The notes: generated from the sequence alone by a model not told the origin. A stretch of 64,000 bases of DNA from Candidatus Methylomirabilota bacterium (GCA_035550795.1 DASZOL010000052.1:23266-87265), one strand, 5' to 3'; counted from the first letter of the stretch, positions 42,178 through 62,808 are shown. Made by a program: numbers and translations.

Positions 42178-43641
42178 TCACCCGCCGGCGGGCATCGACA
42201 GCGTGACGCGGAACGTCCGGTCGGGGAGGAGGAGCCGTGTCTCGATCTCGATGCCCAAGAGGTCGGCGAGAGCGCGCACGAGGGCCAGTCCGAGGCCGAC
42301 CCGGTGGACGCCGGCGCGGGCCTCGTCCTTTCGCCAGAATCGATCGAACATCACGCCGAGGTCCTCCGGCTCGAGATTGGCGGCTCGGTTGCTGAAGCTC
42401 ACCGAGGCGCGGCCGCGGGTCTCCTCCGAGGCGCAGACCACCGGCGTGTCCGGCAGGCTGTAGGCGACCGCGTTGGCCAGGAGGTTGGACACCGCCAGCG
42501 CGAACTTCTCCGCGTCCGTCTCGAATCGAAGCTCGCGCGAGATCTCCTGCCTGAACTCGATGCCCCGGGCCGCCGCCTCCCTGGCGAGCGGTTTCCAGGC
42601 GGCGTCGACGACCTCCGCCACGTGGACCGGAGTCGTCCAGATCTGCTCCCGACCCTCATCGTAGCGCGCCAGGGCCAGCAGGTGCACGACGACGCGCTCC
42701 ATCTGCTGAGCGATCGCCCCCGCATCCTCGAAGAACTGGCGGACGACCGCCTTGTCATCGGGCCAGCGCACGCCGACCTCGCTCAGGTTCCGGAGCTCGG
42801 TGATCGGGGTCTTGAGCTCGTGGGCGATGTCGCTCGACAGCCGCCGCTCCCGCTTGAAGCCCGCTTCCACGCGAGCGAGCAGGGCGTTGACCTGCTCGAC
42901 GACGACCGCGATCTCCTCGGGCGGCGCCCTCACGGCGATCCGAGTGTCGAGGGAGGTCACCTCGAGCGCCCGCACCTGGCCGGTCATCTGGTCCAGCGCG
43001 CGGAGGCCAATTCGCAGCCCGAACTGCATGAGCGCGGCGAGCGCCACGATGAGGCCCGTCCCGAGGCCGGCGACCGTCAGCTCCATGCGCCGGATCCCGG
43101 CATCGAACTGCTCACGCTCGCGCGCGACGAGAAGCGTGAGGGTCGGGGTGCCGGACGCCGTCGGGGCCGGAGCGGGAGCGTCCTTCGCCTCCGCCGGGTC
43201 CTCCTCGACGTCCAAGGGTGGAATGAAGTCGACCTGGACCTGGCGCCCCCGGCGGCCGTCAGGCAGACGCACGTCGCCGAAGCGCGGCATCGGCGCGGGC
43301 TCCAGGGACCGGGCAAGACCCGCCTGGCGGGTCTCTTCGCTTGCGTCGAATGACGGGGATCGCTGGAGGAGGGAGCCGTCCGCCATCCACAGCTCGAAGT
43401 ACTCGGGGCTGGAGCCCGCCCCGAACTCGGGCATGTGCTCGCGCTCGAACTCGAACTCGATCTGGTCGGCTTCCTGCTCGGTCAGCGCGATGAGCCCTTG
43501 CGCCCTGGCGAGCAGCGCCCGGTCGTACTCGCGCTGCAGCGCGTCGGCGACGACCGTCCTGAGCGCGAATCCCGCCACGAGGAGAGCCGCCGCGGTGCCG
43601 CCGAGGAGGTACACGAACAGACGCGCGCGGAGCGAGCGCAT
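42178..43641 (-). CDS. Two-component sensor histidine kinase (periplasmic sensor, HAMP, HisKA, HATPase_c)
   Basis: Two TM helices. H-box SSDIAHELKTPITEL. C-terminal G-boxes. Confidence 0.85.
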   Translation of the reverse strand: MRSLRARLFVYLLGGTAAALLVAGFALRTVVADALQREYDRALLARAQGLIALTEQEADQIEFEFEREHMPEFGAGSSPEYFELWMADGSLLQRSPSFDASEETRQAGLARSLEPAPMPRFGDVRLPDGRRGRQVQVDFIPPLDVEEDPAEAKDAPAPAPTASGTPTLTLLVAREREQFDAGIRRMELTVAGLGTGLIVALAALMQFGLRIGLRALDQMTGQVRALEVTSLDTRIAVRAPPEEIAVVVEQVNALLARVEAGFKRERRLSSDIAHELKTPITELRNLSEVGVRWPDDKAVVRQFFEDAGAIAQQMERVVVHLLALARYDEGREQIWTTPVHVAEVVDAAWKPLAREAAARGIEFRQEISRELRFETDAEKFALAVSNLLANAVAYSLPDTPVVCASEETRGRASVSFSNRAANLEPEDLGVMFDRFWRKDEARAGVHRVGLGLALVRALADLLGIEIETRLLLPDRTFRVTLSMPAGG

Positions 43642-43642
43642 G

Positions 43643-44308
43643 CTACTCGACGAAGTACCCGAAGCCCCGTCGTGTCTGCACGATCGGAGGCTCCCCCTGG
43701 ACGTGGATCTTCCTGCGAAGGCCGGAGACCAGCACCTCGATGACGTTGCTCGACACGTCCGAGTCGCTCCGGTGCAGGTGCTCGACCAGCTGCTCCTGCG
43801 AGAAGACCTGGCCGCGCTGGTAGGCGAGGAACTCCAGCAGCGCGTACTCCCTCGGCGTCAGGCGGAGCACGGACCCGAGCCGCGAGACCTGTCGGCGGGC
43901 GGCGTCGATCTCGAGGGAGCCCAGCCGGAGGATCGGGTTCTTCGCCTGGTGCCGGCGGCGCACGAGAGCCTGGATCCGCGCGCAGAGCTCCTCGAACGCG
44001 AAGGGCTTGACCAGGTAGTCGTCGGCGCCCAGCTGGAGACCCTTCACCCGATCGTCCACCCGGTCCCGGGCCGACAGGATCAGGACGTGGGTGCTGCGCC
44101 CCTGGGCCCGGAGCCGGAGCAACACCTCCAGCCCGGACAGGCCGGGGAGCATGAGGTCGAGCACGATGACGTCGTACTCGTAGGTCTCGGCGAGGGCGAG
44201 CCCGTCCTCACCGTCGCCGGCCAGATCGACGGCGTAGCCGAGCTTCCTCAGGCCCTGGCTGAGGGACCGGAGGAGGCGCTGGGAATCGTCGACGAGCAGG
44301 ATCTTCAC
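43643..44308 (-). CDS. OmpR-family response regulator
   Basis: MKILLVDD...VIVLDLMLPGLSG receiver. Winged-helix C-terminus LTPREYALLEFL...RRGFGY. Confidence 0.9.
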   Translation of the reverse strand: MKILLVDDSQRLLRSLSQGLRKLGYAVDLAGDGEDGLALAETYEYDVIVLDLMLPGLSGLEVLLRLRAQGRSTHVLILSARDRVDDRVKGLQLGADDYLVKPFAFEELCARIQALVRRRHQAKNPILRLGSLEIDAARRQVSRLGSVLRLTPREYALLEFLAYQRGQVFSQEQLVEHLHRSDSDVSSNVIEVLVSGLRRKIHVQGEPPIVQTRRGFGYFVE

Positions 44309-46811: not shown

Positions 46812-48200
46812 CTACCGGCCTCTGCGCGCGCCGGTCCAGGTGCCTCCGCCGGCGAACGCGTCACCGTAGCCCCACGTCCCGTTGAACTCGACACCCCCCG
46901 GAGTCGTCCGGACCCGGCCGCGTCCGCGCTGGCCGCCCGACTGCCAGACGAAGATCAGCGTATCGCCCCGGGCGATCCCCGAGATCTCGCCCTGGCCCGC
47001 GCCGTAGCTGTAGACGCCCGTCACCCGGTCACCCTGCCGCCGCAGGGCGGTCCGCGCCGGCAACGCGCCCGTGTTGTCGCTCAGCTGGCCATCGAAGACG
47101 CCGTCGAACGACGGCGCCGGCCGGCCCGGAAATGGCGCGGACGGCTCCGGCGCCGCCATCGTCTCCCCGGGCCGACGGGGTGCCAGCGTCTCGAGGCTCA
47201 CCCGCTGCCCCTTCATCGCCATGAGCCGTTGCTGATCCGGATCGGCCAGAACGGGCAGGACTTCCAGCTCGATCGCATCCGCGGTCCCGCGAATGACCTC
47301 GGCCGCCCGCGCCGGGTTCGCCTGGAGCCGGCCGTAGTCGGCCGCGTGCATGCGGAGGTACTCGCTGAGCCGCCGCGCCCGCTCAGTGGTCAGCGGGTGG
47401 GTGTCCGTCCGGAGATAGGCCTGGTACTCCGCATCGGAGCCGAAATCGGCCCGGTGCGCCACGAAGTGCGCCGCGGACAGGAACCAGAACAGGAGGCCGT
47501 CAACCGGCTGGCCGACCCGCCGCAGCACCTCGAGCGCGAATCGGTCGGCCTGGTCCTCGTTCTCGCGGGCGCGCTCGCGAGGCACGCCAGGGCCATACCC
47601 AGGGTGCCGAAAGAGGATGTGGCCGACCTCGTGCAGGAGCACGAAGCTGAGCGATTCGTTGAGGATCTTACCCGAGATCAGGTCGACGCGCGGGTCGTCG
47701 GTGGCGTTGGACGGAATCTGCAGCGCCGCCCTCGGATCGGGGTAGCGGCCCCCGAATCGCGACGACGGCTGGTACTTGAGCATCGACACGTAGTCGGTGA
47801 CGGTCTCGAGCGTATAGTTCTGGCTCTGGAGCCAAGCGTACGCCACCGAGAGGTCCGCCAGGAAGCGGATGGCCATGACGGGCAGGACGACACGCGCCGG
47901 AGCCGTAGCGAAGTACTCGAAGAGCTGACGCTCAGGGCCGCGGAGCGGGAACTGGACATCCAGTCCCTGGAGACGTCGGCGCTCCTCGGGCGTGAGCTTG
48001 GGCAGGAAGACGCTGTTGAGGTTCCAGAGAACCACGTCACGGTAGCCGGACTGCTTCTCCTGCAGCAGCCGGTCCTCGTACATCGAGCCGTAGTCGCGGT
48101 CCGGGGCCCGGGTCTGTGCGCGCGCCTCGCCGGCGCCGGACCCGACGACGCAGAGGGCCGCCGCGAGCGTCGGGACAAGGCCGGCCCATCGCCGGCGCAT
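46812..48200 (-). CDS. Secreted M48-like zinc metallopeptidase domain protein
   Basis: Signal peptide. LLHEVGHILFRH followed by ENEDQADRFA (the HExxH ... ExxxAD arrangement of the M48 family). C-terminal Gly-rich domain. ATG 48200 shares 1 nt with the upstream gene's stop. Confidence 0.55.
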   Translation of the reverse strand: MRRRWAGLVPTLAAALCVVGSGAGEARAQTRAPDRDYGSMYEDRLLQEKQSGYRDVVLWNLNSVFLPKLTPEERRRLQGLDVQFPLRGPERQLFEYFATAPARVVLPVMAIRFLADLSVAYAWLQSQNYTLETVTDYVSMLKYQPSSRFGGRYPDPRAALQIPSNATDDPRVDLISGKILNESLSFVLLHEVGHILFRHPGYGPGVPRERARENEDQADRFALEVLRRVGQPVDGLLFWFLSAAHFVAHRADFGSDAEYQAYLRTDTHPLTTERARRLSEYLRMHAADYGRLQANPARAAEVIRGTADAIELEVLPVLADPDQQRLMAMKGQRVSLETLAPRRPGETMAAPEPSAPFPGRPAPSFDGVFDGQLSDNTGALPARTALRRQGDRVTGVYSYGAGQGEISGIARGDTLIFVWQSGGQRGRGRVRTTPGGVEFNGTWGYGDAFAGGGTWTGARRGR

Positions 48201-48853
48201 CACCGGCCCCTGAAGGCCCGCACGCCGCCCGCGATGGCGCGCGGCGGCGGCTCCGGCTCTCCGTCGCGGATCCAGCGCCGGAACTCGGCGAAGGGGCCCC
48301 ACGCTTCCGAGTCCCAGACGCTGGCGAGCAGGCGCACACGGGCATCGGCAAGCGCGAGCTCGAAGTCCAGGCGCTGCTCCGGCGACACGGCGGGCGTCGC
48401 CTGCTGCCTGATCGTCTCTGCGACCCTCGTCAGCGTGCCAGCCAGCAGCACAACGTTGTTGCGTTCGGCCGTGCGGTCCTCCGGCGCCGTCTGGGCGCTC
48501 TGGGCGCCGCTGTAGCGGAGGCCGCTGACGTCCGTCGGCCCCGGGACGGTCGCGCCCGCCCAATCCCCGGACACCGCCACCGTGCGCGCCGGATTCACCT
48601 CAATCTGCACCGCCTGGTGCAGACCGTAGGCCAGCACGCCTGCCCCGAACAGCGCGAAGAACACCCCGGGTCCTACCCGCGAGATGAAGATCGACACGCC
48701 GCCCGGGAGCTGGAGCTTCCCCGTTCCCTTCTCCGCCAGCGGCATGCTCACAAACAGCCGGTAGCCAAGCCAGATGGCGAGAGCCCCCGACAGCGCGATG
48801 ACGAGCCGCTCGAGGTGTCTCGCCCCGATCCCGATCAGTTGCGGCTCAAGCAT
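48200..48853 (-). CDS. Hypothetical membrane protein
   Basis: Two or three TM helices. Sandwiched in an operon between the heme dioxygenase and the M48-like gene. Confidence 0.5.
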   Translation of the reverse strand: MLEPQLIGIGARHLERLVIALSGALAIWLGYRLFVSMPLAEKGTGKLQLPGGVSIFISRVGPGVFFALFGAGVLAYGLHQAVQIEVNPARTVAVSGDWAGATVPGPTDVSGLRYSGAQSAQTAPEDRTAERNNVVLLAGTLTRVAETIRQQATPAVSPEQRLDFELALADARVRLLASVWDSEAWGPFAEFRRWIRDGEPEPPPRAIAGGVRAFRGR

Positions 48854-48864
48854 GTCCTAACCTC

Positions 48865-51732
48865 CTATCTGAAGGCTTCGTCGGCCTCGGCCCCCCTACG
48901 CGGCTTCCAGTCCAGCGCGTAGTAGTCGCCGCGGTCCCGCGCCCATGGATCGAAGACGTTGACGACTCCGGCCAGCTCGGGCTCGAGCTCCGGGATCGTC
49001 CGGAGAAGCACACGCTTCAAGGGAGAGACCTCCACCTTACGACCGCCCGGTCTCCCCTGCTCCACCATCTTTCCGTCCGGACCGTTGTCTGTGACCCATC
49101 GCACGCCGAGGTGGCTGTAGAATTCGGGCCGGAAGCTGGAGGTGAAGAAGCGATCGCTGAACAGCCGGCGGGAGGCGTTGAGGATGAATACCTGGAGCTG
49201 CGTCTCCGAGATCGCGAACCCGTGAGGACGGGGGAACTCCGCGAGCCAGCCGACGACGGTGTCGATGTCCTCGACGTTGTCCACGATGCTCCCGTCAGGA
49301 TGACCCAGGCAGTCGTTGATCGGTGTGCCGTCGTCGTTCACCTGTGCGCTCGTGATCGGCTTAGAGGCGTCGCATCGATGCCGCCCGTACACGTCGCGCA
49401 GGACTCCGGTCAGACGCTCCTGCTCGATGCGCTCCGGGGTCCCCGCAACCAGCCGCCGATCCACGAAGTCGTCGAAGCTCGTCAGATGCCGGAGCCCGTA
49501 CTGCCGCCGGAACTCGTTGAACCTCGGGACGCCGCGCTCGCGGTCTCGAATCAGGTCGAGGGCGGCCACGTCGATCTTGCCCGTCGGACTCCCGGCCCCA
49601 GGCCGCTCGAGGGCCTGCAGAAACCGGGGGTGGTTCTGGAGCGTGAGGCGGCCGGCTCGCTGGCGCCCCAGGGAGACCACCCAGCTCACGAGCCCGTGCG
49701 CATGCATCGCGGCCGTCGCCTGGCCGCGGACGGTATCCACGACCGGGACCTTCATCCGGATGGCGGCGGGCCCGCCGTCCATCGTGCGGAGCTCGATGAG
49801 ATCCGGAAGCATGGGGTGCAGTCGGTAGACGGTGACGAACTCCTCGGGAAAGCTGAACGGCGAGCCGAAGTGGTTCGTCCCGCCGTTGACGTGCTCGGGG
49901 TTCCGAAGGCTCCAGACGTCCGTCCTCGCGGGGTCGTGGCGGCTGAAGGGCCGGCCGTCGGCGTACACGCGGCTGCCGAGCCCGAAGATGCCCGGGCCCG
50001 ACGCGAGGACCGAGTACCAGGCGGTCGCCTTGTCGGCGTCCCGGGACCGGGCGAGGGACTGGAGGACCTTCGCGAGCGCAACCCGGACGAGCTCGCTGTC
50101 GCTGGCGAGCAGACCGGACCAGTTGGCCTGCAGGGCCAGGTGGAGGGGCTCGTTGTAGAGGAGCTGCGGGGTCCACTCGATCGTGTGGATCTTCGCGATC
50201 TCCGCCGCGACGACCAGGCGCGCGACCTCGAAGAGCTCGCCGGCCCCGACGTCCCGGTAGCGCAGGACCCGCTCGGGCTGCCCGGGGTTCCGCAGGCCCG
50301 AGTCGGCGGCGGGGGTGGCGGCCGCCTGCCGCCGGAACGCGTCCACGAACAGGTTGTGCTCGCGCGCGAAGACGTTGTGGAGCACGCTGAGCCCGATGCT
50401 CCAGTTGTCAGGGAATGCTGCCGCTTCCTGGCCGGACCACCTAGCGTTGATCGGATCATCGGCCCCGAACACGGGGAGATAGCCGAGACGATCACCCGCG
50501 GCGGCGCGAGTGTCGAGAGGCAGCAGACGCAGCCTGGCCGGGTCGGCGGGATCGCGCTTGACACGGCGGCGGGACGCCTCGTCGTAGCCGTAGAGCTGAG
50601 AGGCGTCCCACCAAGCGGTGACGGTGTTGCCGGTGGTTCGAAAGGCGCGCGCGAGGTGCGCCCGGCCCCGGTGGTCGAAGATGGGCGGATCCGCCGCCTC
50701 CGCCAGCGTGGCGACGTCGACTCGGTCCGCCGCACGGCAGCCGAGCCGGGCCTCCGCCTCGGGCGTCAACGGCCGCTCGGCCTCATCGCTCCGCTCCGTC
50801 GCGCACCCCATGCCCATCGTCTCCGACCCGTTGCGACCCTCGGTGAGGTGGGAGAACCAGTCATGCGTCATGAACTGGATCCAGAAGGCCGCCAGCACAT
50901 TGAGGGCCGGCGCCTTCTTGTAGTCGCAGCTCGCCTCGGGAGCGTTGCCGGGCAGTCCACGGCCCGCGCGGCAGGAGTCGGGCGACGGCGATACCCGGCC
51001 GAGCAGCCGGCGGCTGATCACCTGGGGGTCTGGCCTCAGCAGGCCGAGACGCGCGCCGTGGCGGTTCCGCGCGAGGTCGGTGCGGCCAAGCTCCGGAAAC
51101 GTCGCCTCGAACTCCACGTTGCGGGCGAACGGCATGCCGGTGGAGCCCATGAGGGGATTCCGGATGTCGTTGCAGATCCCGGTGAGCGCGCGGTGGCGAA
51201 TCAGGTCGCCGGTGCACAGCTGCGCACCGGCTCCGCCCACGGCGGCGAAGTCCGGATGGCCCGGGGGTAGCCGCATCGCGGGCCATACCCTCAGCGCGGG
51301 ACCGAGGACCCCGTCGCGCCCGCGGACGTAGTCCCGATACGTCCCGCTGTTGTCGAAGAGGTTGAAACGGATCAGCTCGACGCGCTGGTACTCCAGGTCG
51401 ATGAGGGCCCCGTCGATCCCTCGCTGGTCGGGCCGCAACAGGCGAATGCCCAGGTCGGGCGAGGGCATCCGGCTGCCCCCGTCACCGGTCGCCCAGTAGC
51501 GGGGCCAGTCGACCCACGGGCCGCGGCGGACCTCCAGCGCCCGGGCTCCGCCTCGACAGCGGGCGCGCTCGTCGCCAACCTGGCCGAGAAACCGGTGAAC
51601 CCGGTCCTCCGCGACCGGGCGCAGCCCGGCCCACACGGTGCGGAGACAGGCCTCGAGATCCGCCGGCGTGTTGCCGCATCCGGCGATGAGCAGCCCCGCA
51701 CCCAGGACGAGCCAGAGCGCGCGGCAGTTCAC
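48865..51732 (-). CDS. Peroxidase-cyclooxygenase superfamily heme protein (animal heme peroxidase fold); alpha-dioxygenase/cyclooxygenase-like fatty acid dioxygenase, lipoprotein
   Basis: Lipobox LLIAGCG. Distal-His block LAAFWIQFMTHDWFSH. Catalytic Tyr/proximal His block EEFVTVYRLHPMLPD (Y-R-x-H as in plant alpha-DOX and COX). Confidence 0.8.
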   Translation of the reverse strand: MNCRALWLVLGAGLLIAGCGNTPADLEACLRTVWAGLRPVAEDRVHRFLGQVGDERARCRGGARALEVRRGPWVDWPRYWATGDGGSRMPSPDLGIRLLRPDQRGIDGALIDLEYQRVELIRFNLFDNSGTYRDYVRGRDGVLGPALRVWPAMRLPPGHPDFAAVGGAGAQLCTGDLIRHRALTGICNDIRNPLMGSTGMPFARNVEFEATFPELGRTDLARNRHGARLGLLRPDPQVISRRLLGRVSPSPDSCRAGRGLPGNAPEASCDYKKAPALNVLAAFWIQFMTHDWFSHLTEGRNGSETMGMGCATERSDEAERPLTPEAEARLGCRAADRVDVATLAEAADPPIFDHRGRAHLARAFRTTGNTVTAWWDASQLYGYDEASRRRVKRDPADPARLRLLPLDTRAAAGDRLGYLPVFGADDPINARWSGQEAAAFPDNWSIGLSVLHNVFAREHNLFVDAFRRQAAATPAADSGLRNPGQPERVLRYRDVGAGELFEVARLVVAAEIAKIHTIEWTPQLLYNEPLHLALQANWSGLLASDSELVRVALAKVLQSLARSRDADKATAWYSVLASGPGIFGLGSRVYADGRPFSRHDPARTDVWSLRNPEHVNGGTNHFGSPFSFPEEFVTVYRLHPMLPDLIELRTMDGGPAAIRMKVPVVDTVRGQATAAMHAHGLVSWVVSLGRQRAGRLTLQNHPRFLQALERPGAGSPTGKIDVAALDLIRDRERGVPRFNEFRRQYGLRHLTSFDDFVDRRLVAGTPERIEQERLTGVLRDVYGRHRCDASKPITSAQVNDDGTPINDCLGHPDGSIVDNVEDIDTVVGWLAEFPRPHGFAISETQLQVFILNASRRLFSDRFFTSSFRPEFYSHLGVRWVTDNGPDGKMVEQGRPGGRKVEVSPLKRVLLRTIPELEPELAGVVNVFDPWARDRGDYYALDWKPRRGAEADEAFR

Positions 51733-51842
51733 CGGACCGCGTCCCCCTCCCCGCCCGAACGACGGGACGGCCGGATCGGGTGGAACCCGACATACAATGA
51801 GACACGCGCAGACTGGACGGCTCGGCCCGGGGGAAAGGCAAG

Positions 51843-53057
51843 GTGACGCTCCTCAAGGCATTCCACGACGCGGTCATCGAGCTCACCAAGCTGGAGCGCC
51901 GAATCGATCCGTTCTTTCGCCCGGCCCTCGACGGCCTTCTGCGGGAGCCGCTGGCGGCGCTGACCCAGTTCCTCATCAACCTCGGGCGCCGGGACGAGGG
52001 GCTCCGGCTCGCCGAGGAGAGAGCCTTGCCAGGCGAGGAGGCGTTCCTCGACTCGATCATCGCGGACATGGCCGCGTACATGCGCGCCCACTACTCGCCG
52101 GGCCAGTTCGAGCGCGCCGGGAACACCAAGACCCATGGCGTGCTTCGCGGCGAGTTCACCGTGCGTGACGACGTGCCCGGGGAGTGGCGCCACGGCGTCT
52201 TCGCCGAGCCCCGGACCTACCGCGCCTGGGTTCGGTTCGCCGGGCCGGGCCCGGCGAGTCCGCCGGACATCGAGGAGGTGGGCGTCCTGAGCATCGGCGT
52301 CAAGCTGATGGGCGTGCCGGGGCCGAAGCTCCTCAGCGACGAGCGCTTCACCCAGGACTTCAGCGGCATCAGCGCGCCGACCTTCACGACGCCGGACGTC
52401 CGGGAGAACGCCAAGCTGCAGGCGGCCAGCCTGAAGGGCACGCCCCTCTTCTACTTCATCAATCCGTTCGATTCGCACCTCCTCGACGGCGTGATGCAGG
52501 GACTGTGGGCCCGGACGCACTCCAGTCCGCTGGAGACCCCGTACTGGAGCTGCGTCGCGTATCTCCTCGGGGAGGGACGGGCCATGCAGTACTCCTTCCG
52601 GCCCCGCCCGCGGACCCGGAGCCGGGTGCCCCGGCTGCCGCTGCGCCCACCAGACCACTACTTGCGGGAAACCATGGCGGCCACCCTCCGGCAACAGGAC
52701 GCCGAGTTCGACTTTCTCGTGCAGGTGCAGACCGACGCCCACCGCATGCCCGTGGAGAACGCGTCCGTGCGCTGGCCCGAGCGGCTCTCGCGGCCGGTGC
52801 CCGTCGCGCGCCTCCGCTTGCCGCGCCAGACGTTCGATTCCCCGGCGCAGCTGGCGTTCGCGCACAACCTGTCGTTCAATCCCTGGCACTGTGTCCCCGC
52901 CCACCGTCCGCTCGGGAACCAGAACCGGGGACGGCGTCGCCTCTACGGCGAGCTGTCTCGCCTGCGGCAGTCCATGAATGGCACGCCGCACCGCGAGCCG
53001 ACCGGCGACGAGGTGTTCGAGGATTCCTCGGATCAGTCACCGAAGCTCGTGAGGTAG
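51843..53057 (+). CDS. Catalase-related heme protein (mini-catalase of the allene-oxide-synthase / hydroperoxide-lyase type, Thr-His distal pair)
   Basis: ERAGNTKTHGVLRGEF has a distal His preceded by Thr rather than Val, as in catalase-related AOS. VRFAGPG resembles catalase VRFST. C-terminal RRRLYGELSRLR resembles the proximal-Tyr RLF.Y block. The opposite-strand ORF is low-complexity. Confidence 0.55.
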   Translation: MTLLKAFHDAVIELTKLERRIDPFFRPALDGLLREPLAALTQFLINLGRRDEGLRLAEERALPGEEAFLDSIIADMAAYMRAHYSPGQFERAGNTKTHGVLRGEFTVRDDVPGEWRHGVFAEPRTYRAWVRFAGPGPASPPDIEEVGVLSIGVKLMGVPGPKLLSDERFTQDFSGISAPTFTTPDVRENAKLQAASLKGTPLFYFINPFDSHLLDGVMQGLWARTHSSPLETPYWSCVAYLLGEGRAMQYSFRPRPRTRSRVPRLPLRPPDHYLRETMAATLRQQDAEFDFLVQVQTDAHRMPVENASVRWPERLSRPVPVARLRLPRQTFDSPAQLAFAHNLSFNPWHCVPAHRPLGNQNRGRRRLYGELSRLRQSMNGTPHREPTGDEVFEDSSDQSPKLVR

Positions 53058-54544
53058 CGCAGGGCGCGCAGGCCCGGCAGGAAGAAGTACGCGCCGCCCC
53101 GGACCGTGACGAACTGCGGGAGGCCGGTGATGCGCCGGCGCACCCCCCCCGCCTGCGGGAGGGAGAACGTGCTCGTGACGGGACAGCCGGAAATGGGCCC
53201 CCGACCCCCGACGATCGGGTCGCTCTCTTCGGCGAGGCCGTCGAACTTGGTGCCCATGATCCAGGCGCTCTGCACGAACTCGAACTGCCGGGCGATGTTG
53301 GCGCCAAGGCCGATGAAGTAGAGTCCGCGCTCCGCGTCCCCCGCGCCGCCGGGCCGAAGCGCCTCCTCGACCGGCAGCGACGTGCCGTACTCTCGCCCTC
53401 GCCGGAGGATCCGATGGAAGCGGGTGGACGCGACCACGTCCTCGCGAAAGCTCTTCCGGCCGAACCCGAGCGTCCGGATCAGGCGGCGAATGAAGCCCGC
53501 CGGGCCACCGGGCAGGTCGGCGTTGCGCGGGTTGGCGCGGCGAATGTGGGCCCCGAGCGGGCAACGCGTGCCCGCGGCATCGGAGTCGAACGTGAACTGA
53601 TTGTACCGAACCCCGTCCGGCGAGCCGGTCGCGAGCCCGGCGATCGGCCGGCCGCCGACTGTGATGAGCGGCTCACCCGTCATTGCGCGGCCGACCATGG
53701 CCTCGGCCAGCGCCCGCCGCGCCTGTGGATCGCCGTTCGTCTGCCGGTGCAGGAACTGCCAGAAGCCCCGCACGTCCTGCCGGAGCTGGCGGACGACGAG
53801 ATAGGTTCCGTTGCGGCCAACGTCCCGGCGGCCGGGAGCGCTGGCCGCCGGAGGCAGGTCGGCCACACGGTCGCCCTTCGGATCGATCAGCGGTCGGTCC
53901 GTGTACTTTCCGTACTCGTTGGGGTAACCGAGCAGGAACTCCCCGAGCGACACGACGTTCCCGTACTCGAGCAGGTCGCTTCCGTTCGCGGTCCTCCGCC
54001 CCTCCCAGTCGAGCACGGGCTGGCTGATGCCGTCGACGAAGCCGAACGGCTCGACGTCGTCGAGAGGGGCCGGGACCGGGCTCTCAAGCACCTGGAACGC
54101 CCTCGCCCAGGGATCGCACGTCGCCGTCAGCGTCCAGGACTCGATCTGCCCGGGCTCGGCATAGAGGAGGACCGCGACGTGAGGCACGTTGCCGGGTCCG
54201 CCCCAGTCCCAGTGCGCGGGGTCGCTGCCGCCAACGTCGCCCAGACGGCGGGAGCGGCTCTCCTCACCGGTCATGCCGGAGATGAACTCGGCGGAGAAAC
54301 CGCGGACGACCGCCGCCGGCACCGCCAGCGCCTCCAGCCCCTCGCGCGTGAAGGCCACCTGGAGGGCCGTCCTCGGCGGGGGGGCCGTCCGGACAGCCGT
54401 GGTGACCGGGGCCGCCCGCAGCCACGCCCGGGCGGCGCCGGGATCGACGACCCGGAGGAGGAAGAAGCGTGCCTCGGTCATGTGACCGTAGCCGTAGCGC
54501 ACGAGCCCCTGCACGTCCCCGTACTCGACCGCGAAAGGCGTCAT
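53033..54544 (-). CDS. Dyp-type peroxidase
   Basis: FGFVDGISQP (DyP GxxDG motif) and RCPLGAHIRRANPR (proximal His region). Confidence 0.8.
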   Translation of the reverse strand: MTPFAVEYGDVQGLVRYGYGHMTEARFFLLRVVDPGAARAWLRAAPVTTAVRTAPPPRTALQVAFTREGLEALAVPAAVVRGFSAEFISGMTGEESRSRRLGDVGGSDPAHWDWGGPGNVPHVAVLLYAEPGQIESWTLTATCDPWARAFQVLESPVPAPLDDVEPFGFVDGISQPVLDWEGRRTANGSDLLEYGNVVSLGEFLLGYPNEYGKYTDRPLIDPKGDRVADLPPAASAPGRRDVGRNGTYLVVRQLRQDVRGFWQFLHRQTNGDPQARRALAEAMVGRAMTGEPLITVGGRPIAGLATGSPDGVRYNQFTFDSDAAGTRCPLGAHIRRANPRNADLPGGPAGFIRRLIRTLGFGRKSFREDVVASTRFHRILRRGREYGTSLPVEEALRPGGAGDAERGLYFIGLGANIARQFEFVQSAWIMGTKFDGLAEESDPIVGGRGPISGCPVTSTFSLPQAGGVRRRITGLPQFVTVRGGAYFFLPGLRALRYLTSFGD

Positions 54545-54557
54545 CGGCAGGCCTCCA

Positions 54558-55859
54558 TCACAGGAGCAGGAGCCACTCCCGCGCCTCGGCGTCGGTCATC
54601 GGAGGGCGCTCCAGGCCCGTCCGAATGCGGCTGTTTCGCTCCAGCTCGAAGGCCGTGAGACCGGGATGGGCGTTGTACCAGACCTCGGTCGCCAGCTCGT
54701 GTCGGCGAATGAAGTACTTGAACTTCTGCTCGTCCTTGGCGCCGTCGAGGACGAGCCATCGCGTCCGCGGGTACCCAACGCCGTTGGTGAACACCACGTT
54801 CAGACCGAAGGCGACCTTGTTGATGAAGTCGTCCATGTAGCTCTCGAGGCTGCCGTCGTAGTTGCTGACGAAGAGCAACCGCCGCTTGTCGTCCAGGAAA
54901 GTCCAGCGAGCGAAGTGGATGGTGTTGACGCGCGCGAGGAACCCTCGCGTGTAGACGTGGCGGGTCGTGTAGGCCACGATCCAGAGGACGAAGATCAGGG
55001 TCGTGCGACGGAACCGACCCGGCTTGAGCGTGCCCATCGCGCTGAACTGATTGGTGACGTCGTGATCCTCGAGGTCGGCCAGACGCTTCACGTGCTCGAG
55101 GTCCGGCCGCGGCGCGATCTCCGGGTCCGTCCGCTCCCGACGGCGGAGCAGAAACGCAAACAGCGGGAGGTACAGCAGGAGGAGGGGCAGGGCGAGCAGC
55201 AGCGCCAGGGGCACGCCCGCCGCGTGGAGAAGCTTGCGGACTCGCCAGCCGGGCGGGGTGGGCCCGGGCGGGGTCAGGGCGAGGCGGCCGGCCTGGCGCT
55301 CCCGGCCGACGAAGGCGCGCAGATCGTCGTAGACCTGCGCGGGCGCCCGCCCGGCGAGGGCCCGCGCGTTCGCGTCCAGGTACGTCTCCAGCGCCTGGCG
55401 CAGCGCGCTCTCCTCCCGGACCTGCCGGACCGTTCGTCCCACCCAGTTCACGTAGTGGGCGGCCGCCGGGTGGTCGTGCGCCTTCATCCAGGCGAGCAGG
55501 TCACCGTCCGCCGGGCGTCCCCGACAGTGTGCGAATATGCGGTGGAGCCCCGGTCCGGCGCGCTCGCTCAGGTCCGCGAGGAGCTCGTCCGCCGGCCCGT
55601 CGCAGTCCCCCACGAAGGCGAGCGAGACGGCGTCGCGCGGCGGGGTCACTCCGTGGGCGGCGACGTCGTCCGCCGCGGGGTCGTCGAGCACGACGAAGCG
55701 TGCGAAGTGCAGACGCTCGAAGCGACCGAACGGAACGAGGTCGTTCTCCGGATCGACCACGCCGGGCCGGCGGTTCATGGAGGCGAGCAGCGTCCGGAGG
55801 TAGCCCTCGCGTCCGGGCTCGATCGCCGCCACGACCGCGAAGCTCGATTGAGGCGTCAT
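54558..55859 (-). CDS. Hypothetical membrane-associated protein (central TM segment)
   Basis: Conserved-looking blocks IHFARWTFLDDKRRLLFVSNYDGSLESYMDDFINKVAFGLN. Between the DyP and GMC genes. No family recognised. Confidence 0.5.
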   Translation of the reverse strand: MTPQSSFAVVAAIEPGREGYLRTLLASMNRRPGVVDPENDLVPFGRFERLHFARFVVLDDPAADDVAAHGVTPPRDAVSLAFVGDCDGPADELLADLSERAGPGLHRIFAHCRGRPADGDLLAWMKAHDHPAAAHYVNWVGRTVRQVREESALRQALETYLDANARALAGRAPAQVYDDLRAFVGRERQAGRLALTPPGPTPPGWRVRKLLHAAGVPLALLLALPLLLLYLPLFAFLLRRRERTDPEIAPRPDLEHVKRLADLEDHDVTNQFSAMGTLKPGRFRRTTLIFVLWIVAYTTRHVYTRGFLARVNTIHFARWTFLDDKRRLLFVSNYDGSLESYMDDFINKVAFGLNVVFTNGVGYPRTRWLVLDGAKDEQKFKYFIRRHELATEVWYNAHPGLTAFELERNSRIRTGLERPPMTDAEAREWLLLL

Positions 55860-55864
55860 CGTCC

Positions 55865-56296
55865 TCAGAACTTCAGCGCGAAGTCCATCAGGCGCTTCTG
55901 GTTCCAGTAGACCTTGCCCAGGTAGAGTCCCGGCCCGATCTGGCGGATCTCGTCGCGGATCCACTGCGCGATGATCGACGTGTCCGAGTAGTCGAGGACG
56001 ATGCACTCCTTGCCGTCGAGCCAACTCGGTCCCTTGTAGATCCGGGCGAGGATGGCGTTGAATCCGAAGGGGAGGATCCGGTTCTTCAGCAGGCCCTTCT
56101 TCCCGTCGAACGTCTTGCCCTGCCACGCGAAATGGCTGATGAGCGTCGCGACGTCCGCGCTGTAACTCGTGCCGGGGGCGACGATCGCGGTGCCCTGCGC
56201 CTCGCCGTCGGGAATCTCCCCCGCCGGGCTGTTCGTGAAGAGGTCGTCAAGCTCCTTCTGGGACATCGTCAGGAGCTTCGGGACGTCGTATGTCAT
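55865..56296 (-). CDS. Hypothetical protein (143 aa)
   Basis: Clean ORF 5 nt upstream of the next gene. It may be the N-terminal portion of a domain fused to the downstream gene in other genomes. Confidence 0.45.
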   Translation of the reverse strand: MTYDVPKLLTMSQKELDDLFTNSPAGEIPDGEAQGTAIVAPGTSYSADVATLISHFAWQGKTFDGKKGLLKNRILPFGFNAILARIYKGPSWLDGKECIVLDYSDTSIIAQWIRDEIRQIGPGLYLGKVYWNQKRLMDFALKF

Positions 56297-56327: not shown

Positions 56328-58220
56328 TCAATCGCCCCGCTCCGCGAGAATGTCGTCGGCCGCCTTCTCGGCGACCATGTAGACCGCGCTGACCGGAAAG
56401 AAGCCGGGGATCCGCGGGAAGACCGACGCGTCGACGACCCGCAGACCTCGGGTACCGTGCACGCGGAAGTCGCCGCTGAGCACGCCGCCGTCGTCGCGCG
56501 GTCCGATCGGGCAGCTACAGGACGCGTGGTGGCCCCAGGCGTTGGCTCGCACGAACTCTCGGAGCTCTGCGTCCGATTGCCGATGGTCGCCAGGCTGCTC
56601 CTCCGCGACGATGAGCCCGCCGCGTCTGAGGTGCGCGTTGATGCGACGCACGAGCTTGATCCCGGCGACGACGGAGTCCAGATCCTCGCCAGCCGCGTCG
56701 TCGCCCTCCTCGAAGTAGCGGAAGCTGACGTGTGGCGGCTCCCGCGGATCGGGCGAGCGGAGCGTGACCTCGCCCGCCCGGTTACGGGTGTGGGCCTTGA
56801 GGATCGTCCACGTGAGGTAGTTGAGGCGCGTGGCGACGAGCGTCGAGTAGCTCGGGAAGTAGCCGTCGAACGGGGCCAGAAGGCCGAAGCAGTAGAGGTC
56901 CGGCAGCACCCGCTCCGGGGCGGAGCGCGCGCTCACGCCGAGGATCGCGCCGTTGCTCGCATACACCCCTCTCCGCCGGTTCGCCCACTCGCGGTGCTGC
57001 GGATCCCCCTCCGCGAACCGGGCGCCTTCGAGCACCTTCCACTGCGCGAAGGCCATGCGGCTCACCACTCCGATCTCGTAGCGGTCCTGGAGGTTCTGGC
57101 CCACGCCGGGGAGGTCAACTCGGACCCCGATGCCGTACCGCTCGAGCACGCCGCGCGGCCCCACCCCGGAAAGCATCAACAGCTGCGGCGTGTTGAAGGC
57201 CCCGCCCGCCAGGATGACCTCCGCGGAGGCACGGATCTCCCGGCGCTCCCCCGCCTCGCCGCTTGGGAACCGGTGCGCGCGGTAGAGCCGTTCTCCGCGC
57301 AGGTACTCCACGCCGAGCGCCCGGTTTCCCGCGCCGAAGAGCACGCGCGTGACCAGCGCGTCGAGCTCCAGCCGGAGACGGTCCGGATGCCGCCGGGCCA
57401 CGTCGAGGACGCGCTCTCGCGCGCCCATCCGCGCGTGGTCGCGGGTGGCGAGGGGCAGGTACCCGACGCCCACGGCGTTTTGCTTCACCAGGCGCCAGTC
57501 GTTCGGATCGGCCTTGCCCTGGAGCAGCCACCACAGCCGGGTGATCGGCGGTGCAACCTCGCGGATCGCCAGGCGTGCCGAGCGCTTCATCACCTTGGCC
57601 AGCGCCCGGTCCCGCAAGATGGGCCGGATGTCTGCCCGCTCGGTGTGGAGCCAACCCGCCCAGCCGTGATGCGTGGGATCGATCCCGAGCTTGGCGAGCC
57701 AGCGGTAGACCGGGCGATGGTGGCAGTTCTCGACGCGCCGGAGGTAGCGGCGCATGTTGCCGGCGCTCCACGAGCGATCCCCGGTGAGTGCGGCGATGCC
57801 ATCCCAGTCGGCGTCGTGGGGATAGACGAAGATCAGCGCGTTGTGCGCGGTGCAGCCTCCCAGCGTCCCCGCCCGCGGGTACAGCACGCCGTTGACCTTC
57901 CGGCCGTCCCAGGTCTCCCGGTATTTCGGGTCCCGGCGCTGCTCCGCGTCGCTCTCGTAGTGCCGGACGAAGAAGTTCCAGGCGAGCGCGTCGTTCTCGG
58001 ACGCGAAGGCGTGGAAGGCCGGGACGTCGTAGGCGGCGGGGAGGCGGTTGCCGCCCGGGTCGACCGGGTCCCCTCCCGTCAGCCGGCGCGGATCGCCGCC
58101 GGCCTCGAGCAGCGTCACCGTGCGTCCCGCCTCGGCGAGCCGGGCGGCCACCGTCCCTCCGCCGGCGCCGGAGCCGACGACGACGTATTCGCACTCCGTG
58201 GAGCGAGGGTCAGCTGCCAT
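56328..58220 (-). CDS. GMC family FAD-dependent oxidoreductase (choline dehydrogenase-like, probably H2O2-forming)
   Basis: YVVVGSGAGGGTVAARLAE (FAD Rossmann). GMC signature blocks and C-terminal active-site region ...HASCSCPIG...VVDASVFP. Confidence 0.85.
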   Translation of the reverse strand: MAADPRSTECEYVVVGSGAGGGTVAARLAEAGRTVTLLEAGGDPRRLTGGDPVDPGGNRLPAAYDVPAFHAFASENDALAWNFFVRHYESDAEQRRDPKYRETWDGRKVNGVLYPRAGTLGGCTAHNALIFVYPHDADWDGIAALTGDRSWSAGNMRRYLRRVENCHHRPVYRWLAKLGIDPTHHGWAGWLHTERADIRPILRDRALAKVMKRSARLAIREVAPPITRLWWLLQGKADPNDWRLVKQNAVGVGYLPLATRDHARMGARERVLDVARRHPDRLRLELDALVTRVLFGAGNRALGVEYLRGERLYRAHRFPSGEAGERREIRASAEVILAGGAFNTPQLLMLSGVGPRGVLERYGIGVRVDLPGVGQNLQDRYEIGVVSRMAFAQWKVLEGARFAEGDPQHREWANRRRGVYASNGAILGVSARSAPERVLPDLYCFGLLAPFDGYFPSYSTLVATRLNYLTWTILKAHTRNRAGEVTLRSPDPREPPHVSFRYFEEGDDAAGEDLDSVVAGIKLVRRINAHLRRGGLIVAEEQPGDHRQSDAELREFVRANAWGHHASCSCPIGPRDDGGVLSGDFRVHGTRGLRVVDASVFPRIPGFFPVSAVYMVAEKAADDILAERGD

Positions 58221-58236: not shown

Positions 58237-60696
58237 TTAGAAGGTCTTGAGGAACTCGATCAAGGCGCGCTTGTCCTCGTCGCTCAGCCCCGGCTCCTCC
58301 GTGAAGACGCTCGTGCCGAAGTAGTGGCCCCGGTCGACGACGAAGTCGGGGCACTTGCTGAGAGCGAGCAGCCGGGGCACGAGTGGGGCGAAGGCGCGGC
58401 GCGCCTCCTCGTCGCTGCCCTTTCCGTCCAGCTTCTTCAGGTCCCGAATGAGCTCGTGCAGCAACGGGAGCATTCGCTTCAGGTGCGCCGCGCGCTGCGC
58501 CAGGTCGGCGCCGTCGGGCATGAGCTCCAGGTTCGCCAGCAGGTTCACTGGAGTGCCGGCGGGAATGGGCCCGATCTGGACGCCGCCCTCCCCGAAGAGC
58601 CAGGGCGCGTGCCGGTTGAGCCGCCCGAGCAACGGCGCCAGCTCGTCGGGGAGGTACCCCGCCGGCACTCGGAGGAAGCTCTGGGCCGTCGTCCGATCGA
58701 TGGTTCCCGGCACCTTGTCGCCCAGCACCGCGTCCTTGTCGCGGCGCTCCGGCCAGAGCAGCTTCTCGATCGAGTCCTGGAAGGATCCCAGGCGGGCCTC
58801 GACCGACGGGCTCGGGTCGAAGCGCCCCAGGCTGTTGTTCTGGAGGAAGGGCGCCGTCGACCAGACGCTCACGAGCGAGGACGGGCGCGTGTACCCGCGG
58901 CCGCCGGCCGGCATCTGGTAAGGCCGCGGCGCGCCGGTGAAGGGATCGTGCACGGTGATCGTGCCGACCGACGGGAGATCCTTGTAGGACTGGGAGGAGA
59001 AGTTGTCCCAGATGTTGCCGCCGATCGCGTTCGTCGCGAGCGGGCTGCACGCGTTGGTCTCGAGGAGCGTGACCGGCACCCGAATCTCGTTCGACAGGAA
59101 ATTTCCCTCGAGGAAGTCGTCGGCGAGCACGATCTGCCGCATCTTCTGCTTGTACTCGTCGGTCTTGGTCCAGTCCCAGTAGCGGTTCCAGCAGGTGAGG
59201 TAGCCCGGCCCCGCGCAGCCACCCGGGTCCATGCCGGGGGCGGGCTCGGGGCCCTTGCTCGAATGGCAGCGAGCGCAGCGGTCGGCGAACGCGAGCTTCC
59301 CGCGCCGGAGCGCGGCTTGGTCCTTGGTCAGGAAGGCGGCGCCCCCCGGGGCGTCCCGCAGGCGGTGCGGGGTCGCCGCCCTCAGGAAGAAGAGCGCCAT
59401 GGCCGGCGACTGGGCCTCGGTCGCCAGCCAGTAGTTGGAGTTCTTGCGGGCGACGCTGATCTCAATCGGCGTGATGGGCTTGCCGCCGACCAAGGCCTTG
59501 AAGTGCAGCAGCCACTCCTCGCTGAACAGGCCGATATTCAGGTACACACGGTTGAGCGCTCCAAGCGCGCCCACCGAGTCCGAGCCGTCCTTGAGGACGC
59601 GCGGCGTCCAGACCGTGTCAGGCTTCTGGAAGAACTCCGTCAGCGGGCCGGTCGTGACGTAGTCGTTCAGCTGGCGGTTGTGGAGAGCTCCTCCTGTGAG
59701 CGTTTCCTTCCCCCACCGCTTCGCGAGCTCCAGGCGCGGGCCCAGTTGGTAGACCGCGTTCATCGTGCGAGGGTTGTTGATGTAGTCGGTCGACACGAGG
59801 GAGGTGTCGAGGGCGCCCGGCCGGGACGTGTTGAGCAGCTGGTACATGTAGTTCGTCCGGTCGTACTTCCAGCTGAAGATGCGCTGGACCCAGAAGTACT
59901 GGGCGCCCACGTTGGAGGCCAGGTTCTCCCACCTGGGGTTCTCGGCGTCGCTCGGCGGCTTCGTGGGGCTGGGGCCTACGTGGCAGAAGCCGCACGACAT
60001 GCCCACGCGGTAGGGCCGAACCAGGTCCTTCGAGTTGTAGTACTTCTCGTCCGTGTAGTACTTCACCGGATCCCACTTCTTGGCGGCCGCCTCGTCGAAG
60101 TCAGGGTTCGGGAACAGCCGGAGACCCACGATCCCGGAGGCGTGTCCGTAGTAGGACCCGACCGGGATGCTCCGGCCGCGGGCGCCGATCCGCACGCCGG
60201 GGTACTTCTGTTCGTTCTCGAAGGGATCGGGAGGGCAGTCCGCGCGGCGATTGTCGAGCCACAGCCCGTATCGCCGGGGATCCGGCCCGGTCGGCTTTTC
60301 GAAGCAGGGCTCGTTGATCAGCCCGAGATACGACCAGCGGTTGTGCCGGCCGAAATGCTTGAGGGTCGGATCGGGATGGGACGACACGATCTTGAGGAGG
60401 TCGAAGACCCCGAAGCTCGATACGCTGATCGCATCCCAGAAGCGGTCGTTCCCGCCCGTCCAGACGATCCAGGTATTGCGGCCCTGGACCTCTTCGGGAG
60501 TCAGACTGCCGCCGCCGTCCATGTCATGGAAGTAGTCCTCGGTCGCCGCGGGAAACGAGGCGACCGGCCGGCCGGCCCGGCTGGCCTCGTCGAGGACCTC
60601 CCCCGGCCGTGGCTCGGTCTTCCCGCAGGCCGCCAGCAAGAGCGTGACGCACAGGAACAGCAGCACTCCACGCCGGCATGAGCCACGGTCGGCCAT
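58237..60696 (-). CDS. Large diheme c-type cytochrome lipoprotein (two CxxCH), RoxA / CCP-MauG-like superfamily
   Basis: Lipobox LLLAACG. Heme-binding motifs CGFCH (about residue 235) and CARCH (about 474). RBS AAGGAGA before ATG 60696. About 820 aa. Confidence 0.6.
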   Translation of the reverse strand: MADRGSCRRGVLLFLCVTLLLAACGKTEPRPGEVLDEASRAGRPVASFPAATEDYFHDMDGGGSLTPEEVQGRNTWIVWTGGNDRFWDAISVSSFGVFDLLKIVSSHPDPTLKHFGRHNRWSYLGLINEPCFEKPTGPDPRRYGLWLDNRRADCPPDPFENEQKYPGVRIGARGRSIPVGSYYGHASGIVGLRLFPNPDFDEAAAKKWDPVKYYTDEKYYNSKDLVRPYRVGMSCGFCHVGPSPTKPPSDAENPRWENLASNVGAQYFWVQRIFSWKYDRTNYMYQLLNTSRPGALDTSLVSTDYINNPRTMNAVYQLGPRLELAKRWGKETLTGGALHNRQLNDYVTTGPLTEFFQKPDTVWTPRVLKDGSDSVGALGALNRVYLNIGLFSEEWLLHFKALVGGKPITPIEISVARKNSNYWLATEAQSPAMALFFLRAATPHRLRDAPGGAAFLTKDQAALRRGKLAFADRCARCHSSKGPEPAPGMDPGGCAGPGYLTCWNRYWDWTKTDEYKQKMRQIVLADDFLEGNFLSNEIRVPVTLLETNACSPLATNAIGGNIWDNFSSQSYKDLPSVGTITVHDPFTGAPRPYQMPAGGRGYTRPSSLVSVWSTAPFLQNNSLGRFDPSPSVEARLGSFQDSIEKLLWPERRDKDAVLGDKVPGTIDRTTAQSFLRVPAGYLPDELAPLLGRLNRHAPWLFGEGGVQIGPIPAGTPVNLLANLELMPDGADLAQRAAHLKRMLPLLHELIRDLKKLDGKGSDEEARRAFAPLVPRLLALSKCPDFVVDRGHYFGTSVFTEEPGLSDEDKRALIEFLKTF

Positions 60697-61811: not shown

Positions 61812-61881
61812 CCCGAGCCGGCTCGGGCAGGCGCGATGCGCAGCGTCCCCGACGGCGCCCTGCCCGGCCGCGGCACGTTTT

Positions 61882-62791: not shown

Positions 62792-62808
62792 TGGCCTCGC
62801 CTCCCGCG

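Follow-up and report, generated by a model that had tools for sequence, protein, structure and literature searches.

An alpha-dioxygenase-type lipoprotein and a catalase-fold protein apparently lacking the catalytic histidine occur in a conserved, modular bacterial gene cluster with a DyP-type peroxidase

Alpha-dioxygenases (alpha-DOXs) of plants and cyanobacteria, including the rice (4KVJ/4KVK) and Arabidopsis (4HHR/4HHS) enzymes, CalDOX, LepDOX, and the Crocosphaera enzyme, are cytosolic or monotopic proteins of ~590–650 residues. Homologs have been noted in Proteobacteria, Actinobacteria, and Acidobacteria (PMC8720084), and three cyanobacterial alpha-DOXs have been characterised; bacterial alpha-dioxygenases have so far been characterised as biocatalysts only, and neither paper gives partners or physiology (PMC8720084, PMC9305512). 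Our literature search found no gene-neighbourhood partners described for any alpha-DOX. A dioxygenase beside a small catalase-fold protein is known from Nostoc punctiforme, in which a linoleate 10S-dioxygenase (10S-DOX, B2J5P4), a haem enzyme of the superfamily to which alpha-DOXs also belong, is accompanied by a catalase-related 10S-hydroperoxide lyase (PMC13049297). Other relatives of the catalase fold are coral allene oxide synthase (cAOS, 1U5U/3DY5), the 33-kDa 'minicatalase' MAP-2744c of Mycobacterium avium (3E4W), and the fungal chanoclavine synthase EasC (9JDB/9JDC), which has an alkaloid substrate; a 'y4iL-like' catalase-fold group of CDD is mentioned as uncharacterised (PMC4417212). 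Here, we describe a comparable gene pair in 64,000 nucleotides of DNA from Candidatus Methylomirabilota bacterium (GCA_035550795.1, DASZOL010000052.1:23266-87265), referred to below as the window. The pair consists of open reading frame (ORF) A, encoding an alpha-DOX-type lipoprotein, and ORF B, encoding a catalase-fold haem protein. An original prediction, made from the sequence alone, had taken the pair for a candidate oxylipin module in which a dioxygenase supplies a Thr-His lyase or synthase, and had cited an adjacent cyanobacterial pair as precedent; the precedent is borne out by Nostoc punctiforme.

The G+C content of the window is ~70%, which leaves six-frame ORF lists crowded with shadow ORFs; at 48865–53057, homology backs two ORFs, A and B. 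They are divergent and separated by exactly the gap originally described (Table 1). Partner genes were counted by tblastn of the window proteins against 82 loci carrying relatives of ORF B, comprising the best 80 of 294 confirmed genome loci and two from contig look-ups. The closest relatives of B (88% identity) showed identical synteny and came from Rokubacteria/Methylomirabilota metagenome-assembled genomes. Three genes accompanied B almost throughout, encoding a DyP-type peroxidase (79/82 loci), a 433-residue tandem-ABM protein predicted to be membrane-associated (77/82), and a 143-residue protein (73/82, at 48–88% identity). Together with B they form a core conserved at 40–88% identity in more than 10 phyla, among them Rokubacteria, Proteobacteria, Acidobacteria, Actinomycetota, Cyanobacteria, Chloroflexota, Eremiobacterota, and Planctomycetota. 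No further conserved family emerged when the full ORF sets of the 82 loci were clustered all against all.

Other genes came and went around this core. An alpha-DOX-type gene was present in 30 loci (29 at E<1e-30), a gene for a GMC-family oxidoreductase in 43, and one for a dihaem c-type cytochrome lipoprotein in 48. The GMC and cytochrome genes were the only accessory genes in 34 loci, a short alpha-DOX (~590 residues, 28–31% identity to A) was the only one in 16, and a long alpha-DOX the only one in six, while seven loci combined the long alpha-DOX with the GMC and cytochrome genes, as in the window. Eight loci gave divergent or partial GMC/cytochrome matches and 11 had no accessory gene, six of the latter being short contigs. 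The loci with the short alpha-DOX only belong to Cyanobacteria, Actinomycetota, Chloroflexota, and Polyangiales. The cluster is an invariant four-gene core with two accessory modules, alpha-DOX and GMC/dihaem cytochrome c, both of which are present in the window. The self-contained A/B pair originally envisaged does not match this arrangement: the constant partners of B are the DyP, tandem-ABM, and 143-residue proteins, and A is one of the two accessory modules.

The core partners of B differed in how readily they could be assigned. The DyP neighbour matched PDB entries 8re3 (2.7e-41) and DyP2 4g2c (6e-20), with the GxxDG motif and the proximal His aligned, and its segments FGFVDGISQP and PLGAHIRRANPR line up with DyP motifs; its match to TIGR01413 (1e-18, 67.7 bits) lies below the cutoff of 100.5. 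From these alignments it is predicted to be a genuine DyP peroxidase of the C/D-type. The 433-residue protein had no match in Pfam, NCBIfam, or PDB, nor did its profile find one in PDB, and its more than 5400 homologs are all named 'hypothetical'. An AlphaFold2 model of it (predicted local distance difference test (pLDDT) 79.5) showed two ABM-like, ferredoxin-like alpha+beta domains flanking a long hydrophobic helix (203–244), and Foldseek matched the model to the tandem ABM proteins 9ltx (5e-5) and WhiE-ORFI 9lmn (1.4e-4). The 143-residue protein is highly conserved and gave no family match.

Several smaller features of the core were also observed. Both ABM-like halves of the 433-residue protein carry an H-F-A-R-[FW] motif, with His51, His266, His301, His315, and His387 invariant; the central helix is strongly hydrophobic and Pro-rich, transmembrane or re-entrant, and an identical protein is encoded on a 3-kb JGI metagenome contig (P0121). 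A role for the 143-residue protein as the Tat-signal small subunit of a GMC/cytochrome c dehydrogenase was ruled out, as it co-occurs with the core in loci without GMC and has no signal sequence. The B and DyP genes are convergent, their 3' ends overlapping by 25 bp (53033–53057), and such tail-to-tail overlap or abutment is common (e.g. loci L003–L005 and L019–L022). Additional conserved ORFs were seen (L008, L012, and L018): one of ~299 residues separates B from DyP in Deltaproteobacteria/Binatia, and one of ~134 residues separates B from the short alpha-DOX in Actinomycetota. Culturable carriers of the core include Paraburkholderia (P. sacchari LMG 19450), Rhizobium (plasmid-borne; R. grahamii is one carrier), and Streptomyces (S. 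cinnamoneus).

ORF A matched the Pfam family An_peroxidase (PF03098) with an E-value of 8e-59. Against all PDB sequences, counted at E<=1e-3, its matches were three alpha-DOX sequences (3e-51 to 5e-46, including rice 4kvj at 3.3e-51 and Arabidopsis 4hhr at 5.5e-46), followed by the weaker matches lactoperoxidase (1.7e-5) and myeloperoxidase (5e-4); no cyclooxygenase (COX) chain was among them. Both motifs claimed for the protein, WIQFMTHDW and VYRLHPMLPD, were read in its translation. Residues were matched to the rice enzyme from the printed alignment after correction for a +3 chain offset. His290 corresponds to the distal His157 (WIQFMTHDW vs WIQFMVHDW), Tyr636 to the catalytic Tyr379 (VYRLH vs VYRMH), and His639 to the proximal His382; Tyr636 also stands opposite the Phe of the Y379F mutant 4kvl (VFRMH). 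The segments IAKIHTIEWT and FILNASRRL line up with the carboxylate-binding motifs of the rice enzyme, so placed that His516, Trp520, and Thr521 correspond to His311, Trp315, and Thr316, the Thr positioning C-2, and the second Arg of ASRR corresponds to Arg559. The roles of these key residues in alpha-DOX have been described (PMC8720084). Among 80 long-form metagenomic orthologs, the distal-His and Tyr/proximal-His motifs were kept in 78–79, H-T-x-E-W-T in at least 71, and ASRR in 74.

These matches place ORF A, by prediction, among the fatty-acid dioxygenases of the peroxidase-cyclooxygenase superfamily, in the plant/cyanobacterial alpha-DOX clade, and imply oxygenation at C-2. The superfamily assignment agrees with the original one, including the Tyr on whose presence it had been made to depend. 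The 'COX/alpha-DOX-like' label holds in its alpha-DOX half; the COX half found no counterpart in PDB, and a 10S-DOX is not indicated either, the 10S-DOX substrate motifs IMxxYIxxITP and GRxxSxIPAxxARxIGxDA (as listed in PMC13049297) being absent from ORF A and all cluster-linked homologs.

A is identical to the plant and cyanobacterial enzymes at the distal and proximal His, the catalytic Tyr, the His and Arg that bind the carboxylate, and the C-2 Thr, but departs from them in size and export signal. It is ~330 residues longer than known alpha-DOXs, with an N-terminal extension of ~160 residues and several insertions, and its N-terminus, MNCRALWLVLGAGLLIAG followed directly by Cys, is a lipobox. 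A lipobox was also found in orthologs from Rokubacteria, Deltaproteobacteria, and Binatia, and a Sec signal in acidobacterial and other orthologs, so that the dioxygenase does appear as a lipoprotein, as had been proposed. The short cluster-linked forms of cyanobacteria and Actinomycetota, in contrast, fit the usual size and have no export signal, and the cyanobacterial ones share key-residue numbers with the characterised CalDOX (His131, His290, Trp294, Thr295, Phe354, and His361; PMC8720084). Two cluster-linked short homologs inspected at the distal position, from Streptomyces cinnamoneus (L070, WLQFMIRDW) and Polyangiales (L058, WIQFMTRDW), have Arg for the distal His and still keep the Tyr and the proximal His; the distal His of alpha-DOX is described as partly conserved (PMC8720084).

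ORF B alone had no match in Pfam, NCBIfam, or PDB sequence searches, and a 40-sequence profile gave only a non-significant match to cAOS. Some of its more than 6500 homologs are named 'catalase family protein' by NCBI. An AlphaFold2 model (pLDDT 73, predicted template modelling score 0.79) matched coral allene oxide synthase (1u5u, 1.2e-10) best in Foldseek, followed by the M. avium minicatalase 3e4y and then true catalases. The proximal motif R364-x3-Y368-x6-R375, helical in the model, is invariant in B orthologs, and its spacing is what we take to be that of catalase Arg354/Tyr358/Arg365. ORF B shows the beta-barrel fold of catalases, the proximal Tyr, and the Arg residues that partner it; it is a catalase-fold haem protein, predicted to be Tyr-ligated, and not a true catalase. 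It shares 14% sequence identity with cAOS, from which it differs by an additional helical region of ~85 residues at the N-terminus. MAP-2744c, against which B is undetectable by sequence, belongs to another subfamily and is not known to have a DyP/ABM cassette around it; EasC has no sequence-level relation to B.

The register of the distal site was read through a paralog of B, termed B', which came to light among the neighbours of ORF A relatives. B' is ~315 residues long, is 28–34% identical to B, and lacks its N-terminal helical region; four loci hold B' and B together. It scored 27.6 bits against Pfam Catalase (gathering cutoff 25), and its profile matched cAOS (5e-6), MAP-2744c (1.3e-3), and catalases (0.01). 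Alignment with catalase 4e37 set R-R-M-H-A-K-G opposite R-F-N-Q-x-K-T of B', which puts Gln at the catalytic-His position; B' keeps the distal Asn and has Val/Ile at the position equivalent to His98 of B. The alignment of B with B' (hhalign probability 100%, E 1.8e-48) set R91-A-G93-N94-T95-K96-T97 opposite the same R-F-N-Q-x-K-T. The two alignments together make Asn94 the catalytic-His site of B, with His98 four residues downstream; the catalytic His of catalases and Thr66-His67 of cAOS would then correspond to Gly93-Asn94. An hhalign comparison of the B family with approximate catalase sequences agreed on this register, though with low probability, and is supporting only. The T97-H98 of GNTKTHG, which had been read as Thr-His in place of the catalase Val-His, lies at His+3/+4 relative to the catalytic position and, on these sequence alignments, is out of register.

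Conservation across orthologs fits this register. Asn94, Lys96, and Thr97 are invariant in the 82 genomes, and His98 is kept in 70, with Tyr in 11 and Gln in one. The Tyr variants (GNTKTY) occur in Actinomycetota and Chloroflexota (L038, L046, L049, L059, L072, L074, L075, L077, L078, L080, and L082) and the Gln variant in a cyanobacterium (L030), with the remaining motif residues unaltered. The position of the distal Asn148 of catalase (Asn137 in cAOS) is Ile176 in B, and that of Ser114 is Ala133 (Ala/Gly/Ser across the family). As the predicted catalytic position holds Asn and that of Asn148 a hydrophobic residue, ORF B cannot be a catalase, and a His-dependent mechanism of the cAOS kind is unlikely. 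Full retention of Val-His, Asn, and Ser, which would have marked a true catalase, was not found, and the protein is not a true catalase, as originally suspected; the proposed Thr-His hallmark of an allene oxide synthase or lyase is not supported, given the misregistered motif and the replacement of His98 in 12 of the 82 orthologs and, by Val/Ile, in B'.

Gene order ties A to the cassette. Long-form A genes have cassette members as their only recurrent neighbours. Eight metagenome loci show the order A-B'-u143-u433-DyP, sometimes followed by B; the median distance from A to the downstream B' is 41 bp. In L001, whose B is 84% identical, every gene points the same way, and there is a 4-bp overlap between B and A. 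Of the 82 species, 29 have an alpha-DOX-type gene no more than 10 kb from B; they belong to Rokubacteria, Binatia/Deltaproteobacteria, Acidobacteria, Actinomycetota, Cyanobacteria, and Chloroflexota. This linkage recurs far above chance, and A and B probably work together. The idea of an oxylipin module keeps, on this evidence, its linkage across phyla and the position of B' downstream of A, and loses the analogy with an allene oxide synthase or lyase. That A was merely placed beside the cassette in this lineage with no functional tie is highly improbable: most long-form A genes lack the cassette and the A/B orientation varies among close relatives (divergent in L003–L007, co-directional in L001), but the linkage spans at least six phyla and two alpha-DOX forms (28–31% vs 59–83% identity), and B' directly after A in eight further loci is far above expectation, given how rarely genomes carry such a gene.

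We favour the reading that the window holds a single copy of a multi-haem gene cluster of modular build, widespread in bacteria, whose core consumes the product of a front end, and we give it about an even chance of being right. ORF A would be anchored at the periplasmic face and use a Tyr636 radical to oxygenate C-2 of free fatty acids, yielding 2-hydroperoxy acids that would decay to Cn-1 aldehydes. B and DyP, the haem proteins of the core, would consume or convert a product of whichever accessory module is present. The likeliest such product would be an organic hydroperoxide, serving as substrate or oxidant, as in the minicatalase MAP-2744c. By analogy with CYP74 enzymes, B may carry out a direct iron-peroxide homolysis in which the side chain of an amide residue assists. 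A bolder version, in which the four-gene core is a new haem-enzyme machine that takes peroxides or aldehydes from interchangeable front ends in an undescribed lipid transformation, we regard as doubtful.

Several observations weigh against this reading. Cassette parts of any kind accompany only ~20 of the 80 long-form A loci, and several long-form loci carry A alone even with 8 kb or more of sequence to either side, indicating that A can function without the cassette. Export signals were seen in A and the dihaem protein and none in B, B', DyP, GMC, or the 143-residue protein; with A exported and B carrying no signal, direct hand-over of an unstable hydroperoxide is not straightforward, and either a 2-hydroperoxide would need to pass through the membrane or the proteins are located otherwise than their N-termini indicate. 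The Arg at the distal-His site of Streptomyces cluster-linked homologs means that front-end chemistry may differ among lineages. Finally, His98 is conserved in most orthologs and, were the pocket remodelled, could come within reach of the haem; the segment around residues 90–100 has a pLDDT of ~66 in the model.

The best-surviving alternative is that the locus is a peroxide-defence island, in which A, B, DyP, and the cytochrome c peroxidase-like dihaem protein act as independent, co-regulated scavengers with no biosynthetic flow. Four peroxidase-type folds do stand within one cluster, a two-component system is encoded nearby (42178–44308), and the closest small relative of B is MAP-2744c, which, in work by Pakhomova et al. 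of 2009, was reportedly a peroxidase acting on organic hydroperoxides, with a suggested role in limiting reactive oxygen species. ORF A, however, retains all residues specific to fatty acid alpha-dioxygenation, beyond those of a peroxidase. The strict four-gene co-inheritance with overlapping or tight spacing across phyla suggests a pathway or complex, and the ABM and 143-residue proteins have no scavenger precedent. We consider independent scavenging rather unlikely.

In a further alternative, B would be a Thr-His allene oxide synthase or hydroperoxide lyase acting on the hydroperoxide made by A, in the manner of the Nostoc punctiforme 10S-DOX and 10S-lyase (PMC13049297). The structural match to cAOS, the fatty acid dioxygenase next door, the Nostoc precedent, and the frequency of His98 would all suit such an enzyme. 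It is unlikely, as the profile alignments place Asn94 at the catalytic His and Gly93 at the Thr/Val position, His98 is replaced in 12 orthologs and in the A-adjacent B', and A is alpha-DOX-like, has no 10S-DOX motifs, and is exported when B is not. To our knowledge, no catalase-related enzyme has activity on 2-hydroperoxides. The present pair differs from that of Nostoc, whose lyase we compared by description, in its alpha-DOX-type dioxygenase, in having no His at the predicted catalytic position of B, and in lying inside a DyP/ABM cassette.

The shared intermediate might instead be an aldehyde, arising in the alpha-DOX module as the 2-hydroperoxide decays and in the GMC module by oxidation of an alcohol, and converted by the core, for example by haem-dependent deformylation or oxidation. 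The accessory modules are largely alternative (34 vs 22 loci, seven with both), alcohol oxidases are among the GMC relatives, and the characterised cyanobacterial alpha-DOXs give Cn-1 aldehydes (PMC8720084). This scheme is purely inferential and we judge it quite unlikely: choline-type enzymes give the best GMC scores, the dihaem partner points to a dehydrogenase or peroxidase role, and no aldehyde-specific enzyme fold is present in the cluster.

The locus and its relatives give bacterial alpha-dioxygenases a conserved set of partner genes to test. What is new here is an alpha-DOX-type enzyme together with a catalase-fold protein predicted to lack the catalytic His, inside a conserved DyP/ABM cassette, of which our literature search found no description; that the cassette is something new in kind has a minority chance. 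If the core does prove to be a new machine, it would provide the first physiological pathway for bacterial alpha-dioxygenases and a new reaction type for the catalase fold. The B family appears to lack the defining residue of catalase and cAOS chemistry, and its function would widen the repertoire of the fold as cAOS, MAP-2744c, and EasC did. The case also cautions that a diagnostic dipeptide read by eye, such as Thr-His, may be misregistered even though the fold assignment is correct.

Table 1. Positions of the features discussed, in the window and in the loci carrying B'
Feature	Sequence	Coordinates	Strand	Description
ORF A	window	48865..51732	-	GTG start, 955 aa, alpha-dioxygenase-type lipoprotein
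A/B divergent intergenic region	window	51733..51842		110 bp exactly
ORF B	window	51843..53057	+	GTG start, 404 aa, catalase-fold haem protein, without signal peptide
DyP-type peroxidase (predicted)	window	53033..54544	-	503 aa
Tandem-ABM protein	window	54558..55859	-	433 aa
143-aa protein	window	55865..56296	-	143 aa
GMC-family FAD oxidoreductase	window	56328..58220	-	630 aa, Pfam GMC_oxred_N and GMC_oxred_C
Dihaem c lipoprotein	window	58237..60696	-	~819 aa, LLAAC lipobox
Predicted membrane protein	window	48200..48853	-	217 aa, starts 11 bp downstream of A, lineage-specific
HExxH (M48/Lit-like) metallopeptidase	window	46812..48200	-	~462 aa, signal peptide, lineage-specific
B'	L118	12840-13805		
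B'	L129	12858-13805		
B'	L132	3903-4850		
B'	L133	3458-4414		
B'	L134	6017-6985		
B'	L135	12854-13798		
B'	L136	13068-14027		
B'	L146	6495-7436		

The GMC enzyme of the second accessory module had choline oxidase/dehydrogenase and fatty acid photodecarboxylase as its best PDB matches and is generic overall. The dihaem lipoprotein, an accessory protein always paired with the GMC gene, carries two widely spaced CxxCH motifs (CGFCH and CARCH); it matched Pfam Cytochrom_C weakly and the di-haem cytochrome c peroxidase model NF040606 at 4.8e-7, below the cutoff. It has no PDB sequence relative, and a likeness to the Pseudomonas fatty-acid dihaem dioxygenases or RoxA is unsupported.

In the A/B intergenic region, neither a sigma-70-like site nor a terminator was found, which is a weak test for a non-model phylum with ~70% G+C. 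On the far side of A, the membrane protein and peptidase originally placed downstream of the lipoprotein were confirmed on the minus strand. The membrane protein gave no family match in Pfam or other family searches and was present in only five of the 82 B loci, all of the Rokubacteria/Methylomirabilota type. The metallopeptidase, whose likely start overlaps the stop of the membrane protein gene, was likewise found in five loci; it matched Pfam Peptidase_M48 (1.1e-5) and, below the cutoff, the Lit model NF007238 (6.6e-6).

Upstream of the dihaem gene, at 60972–63984 on the minus strand, lie three ORFs (279, 329, and 391 residues) that gave no family matches and are conserved in 0–2 of the 82 loci. 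At the other end, the two-component system consists of a histidine kinase (487 residues) and an OmpR-type response regulator (221 residues) on the minus strand, ~2.5 kb beyond the peptidase gene; a regulatory link with the cluster is unproven, and the response-regulator family recurs in six related loci only.

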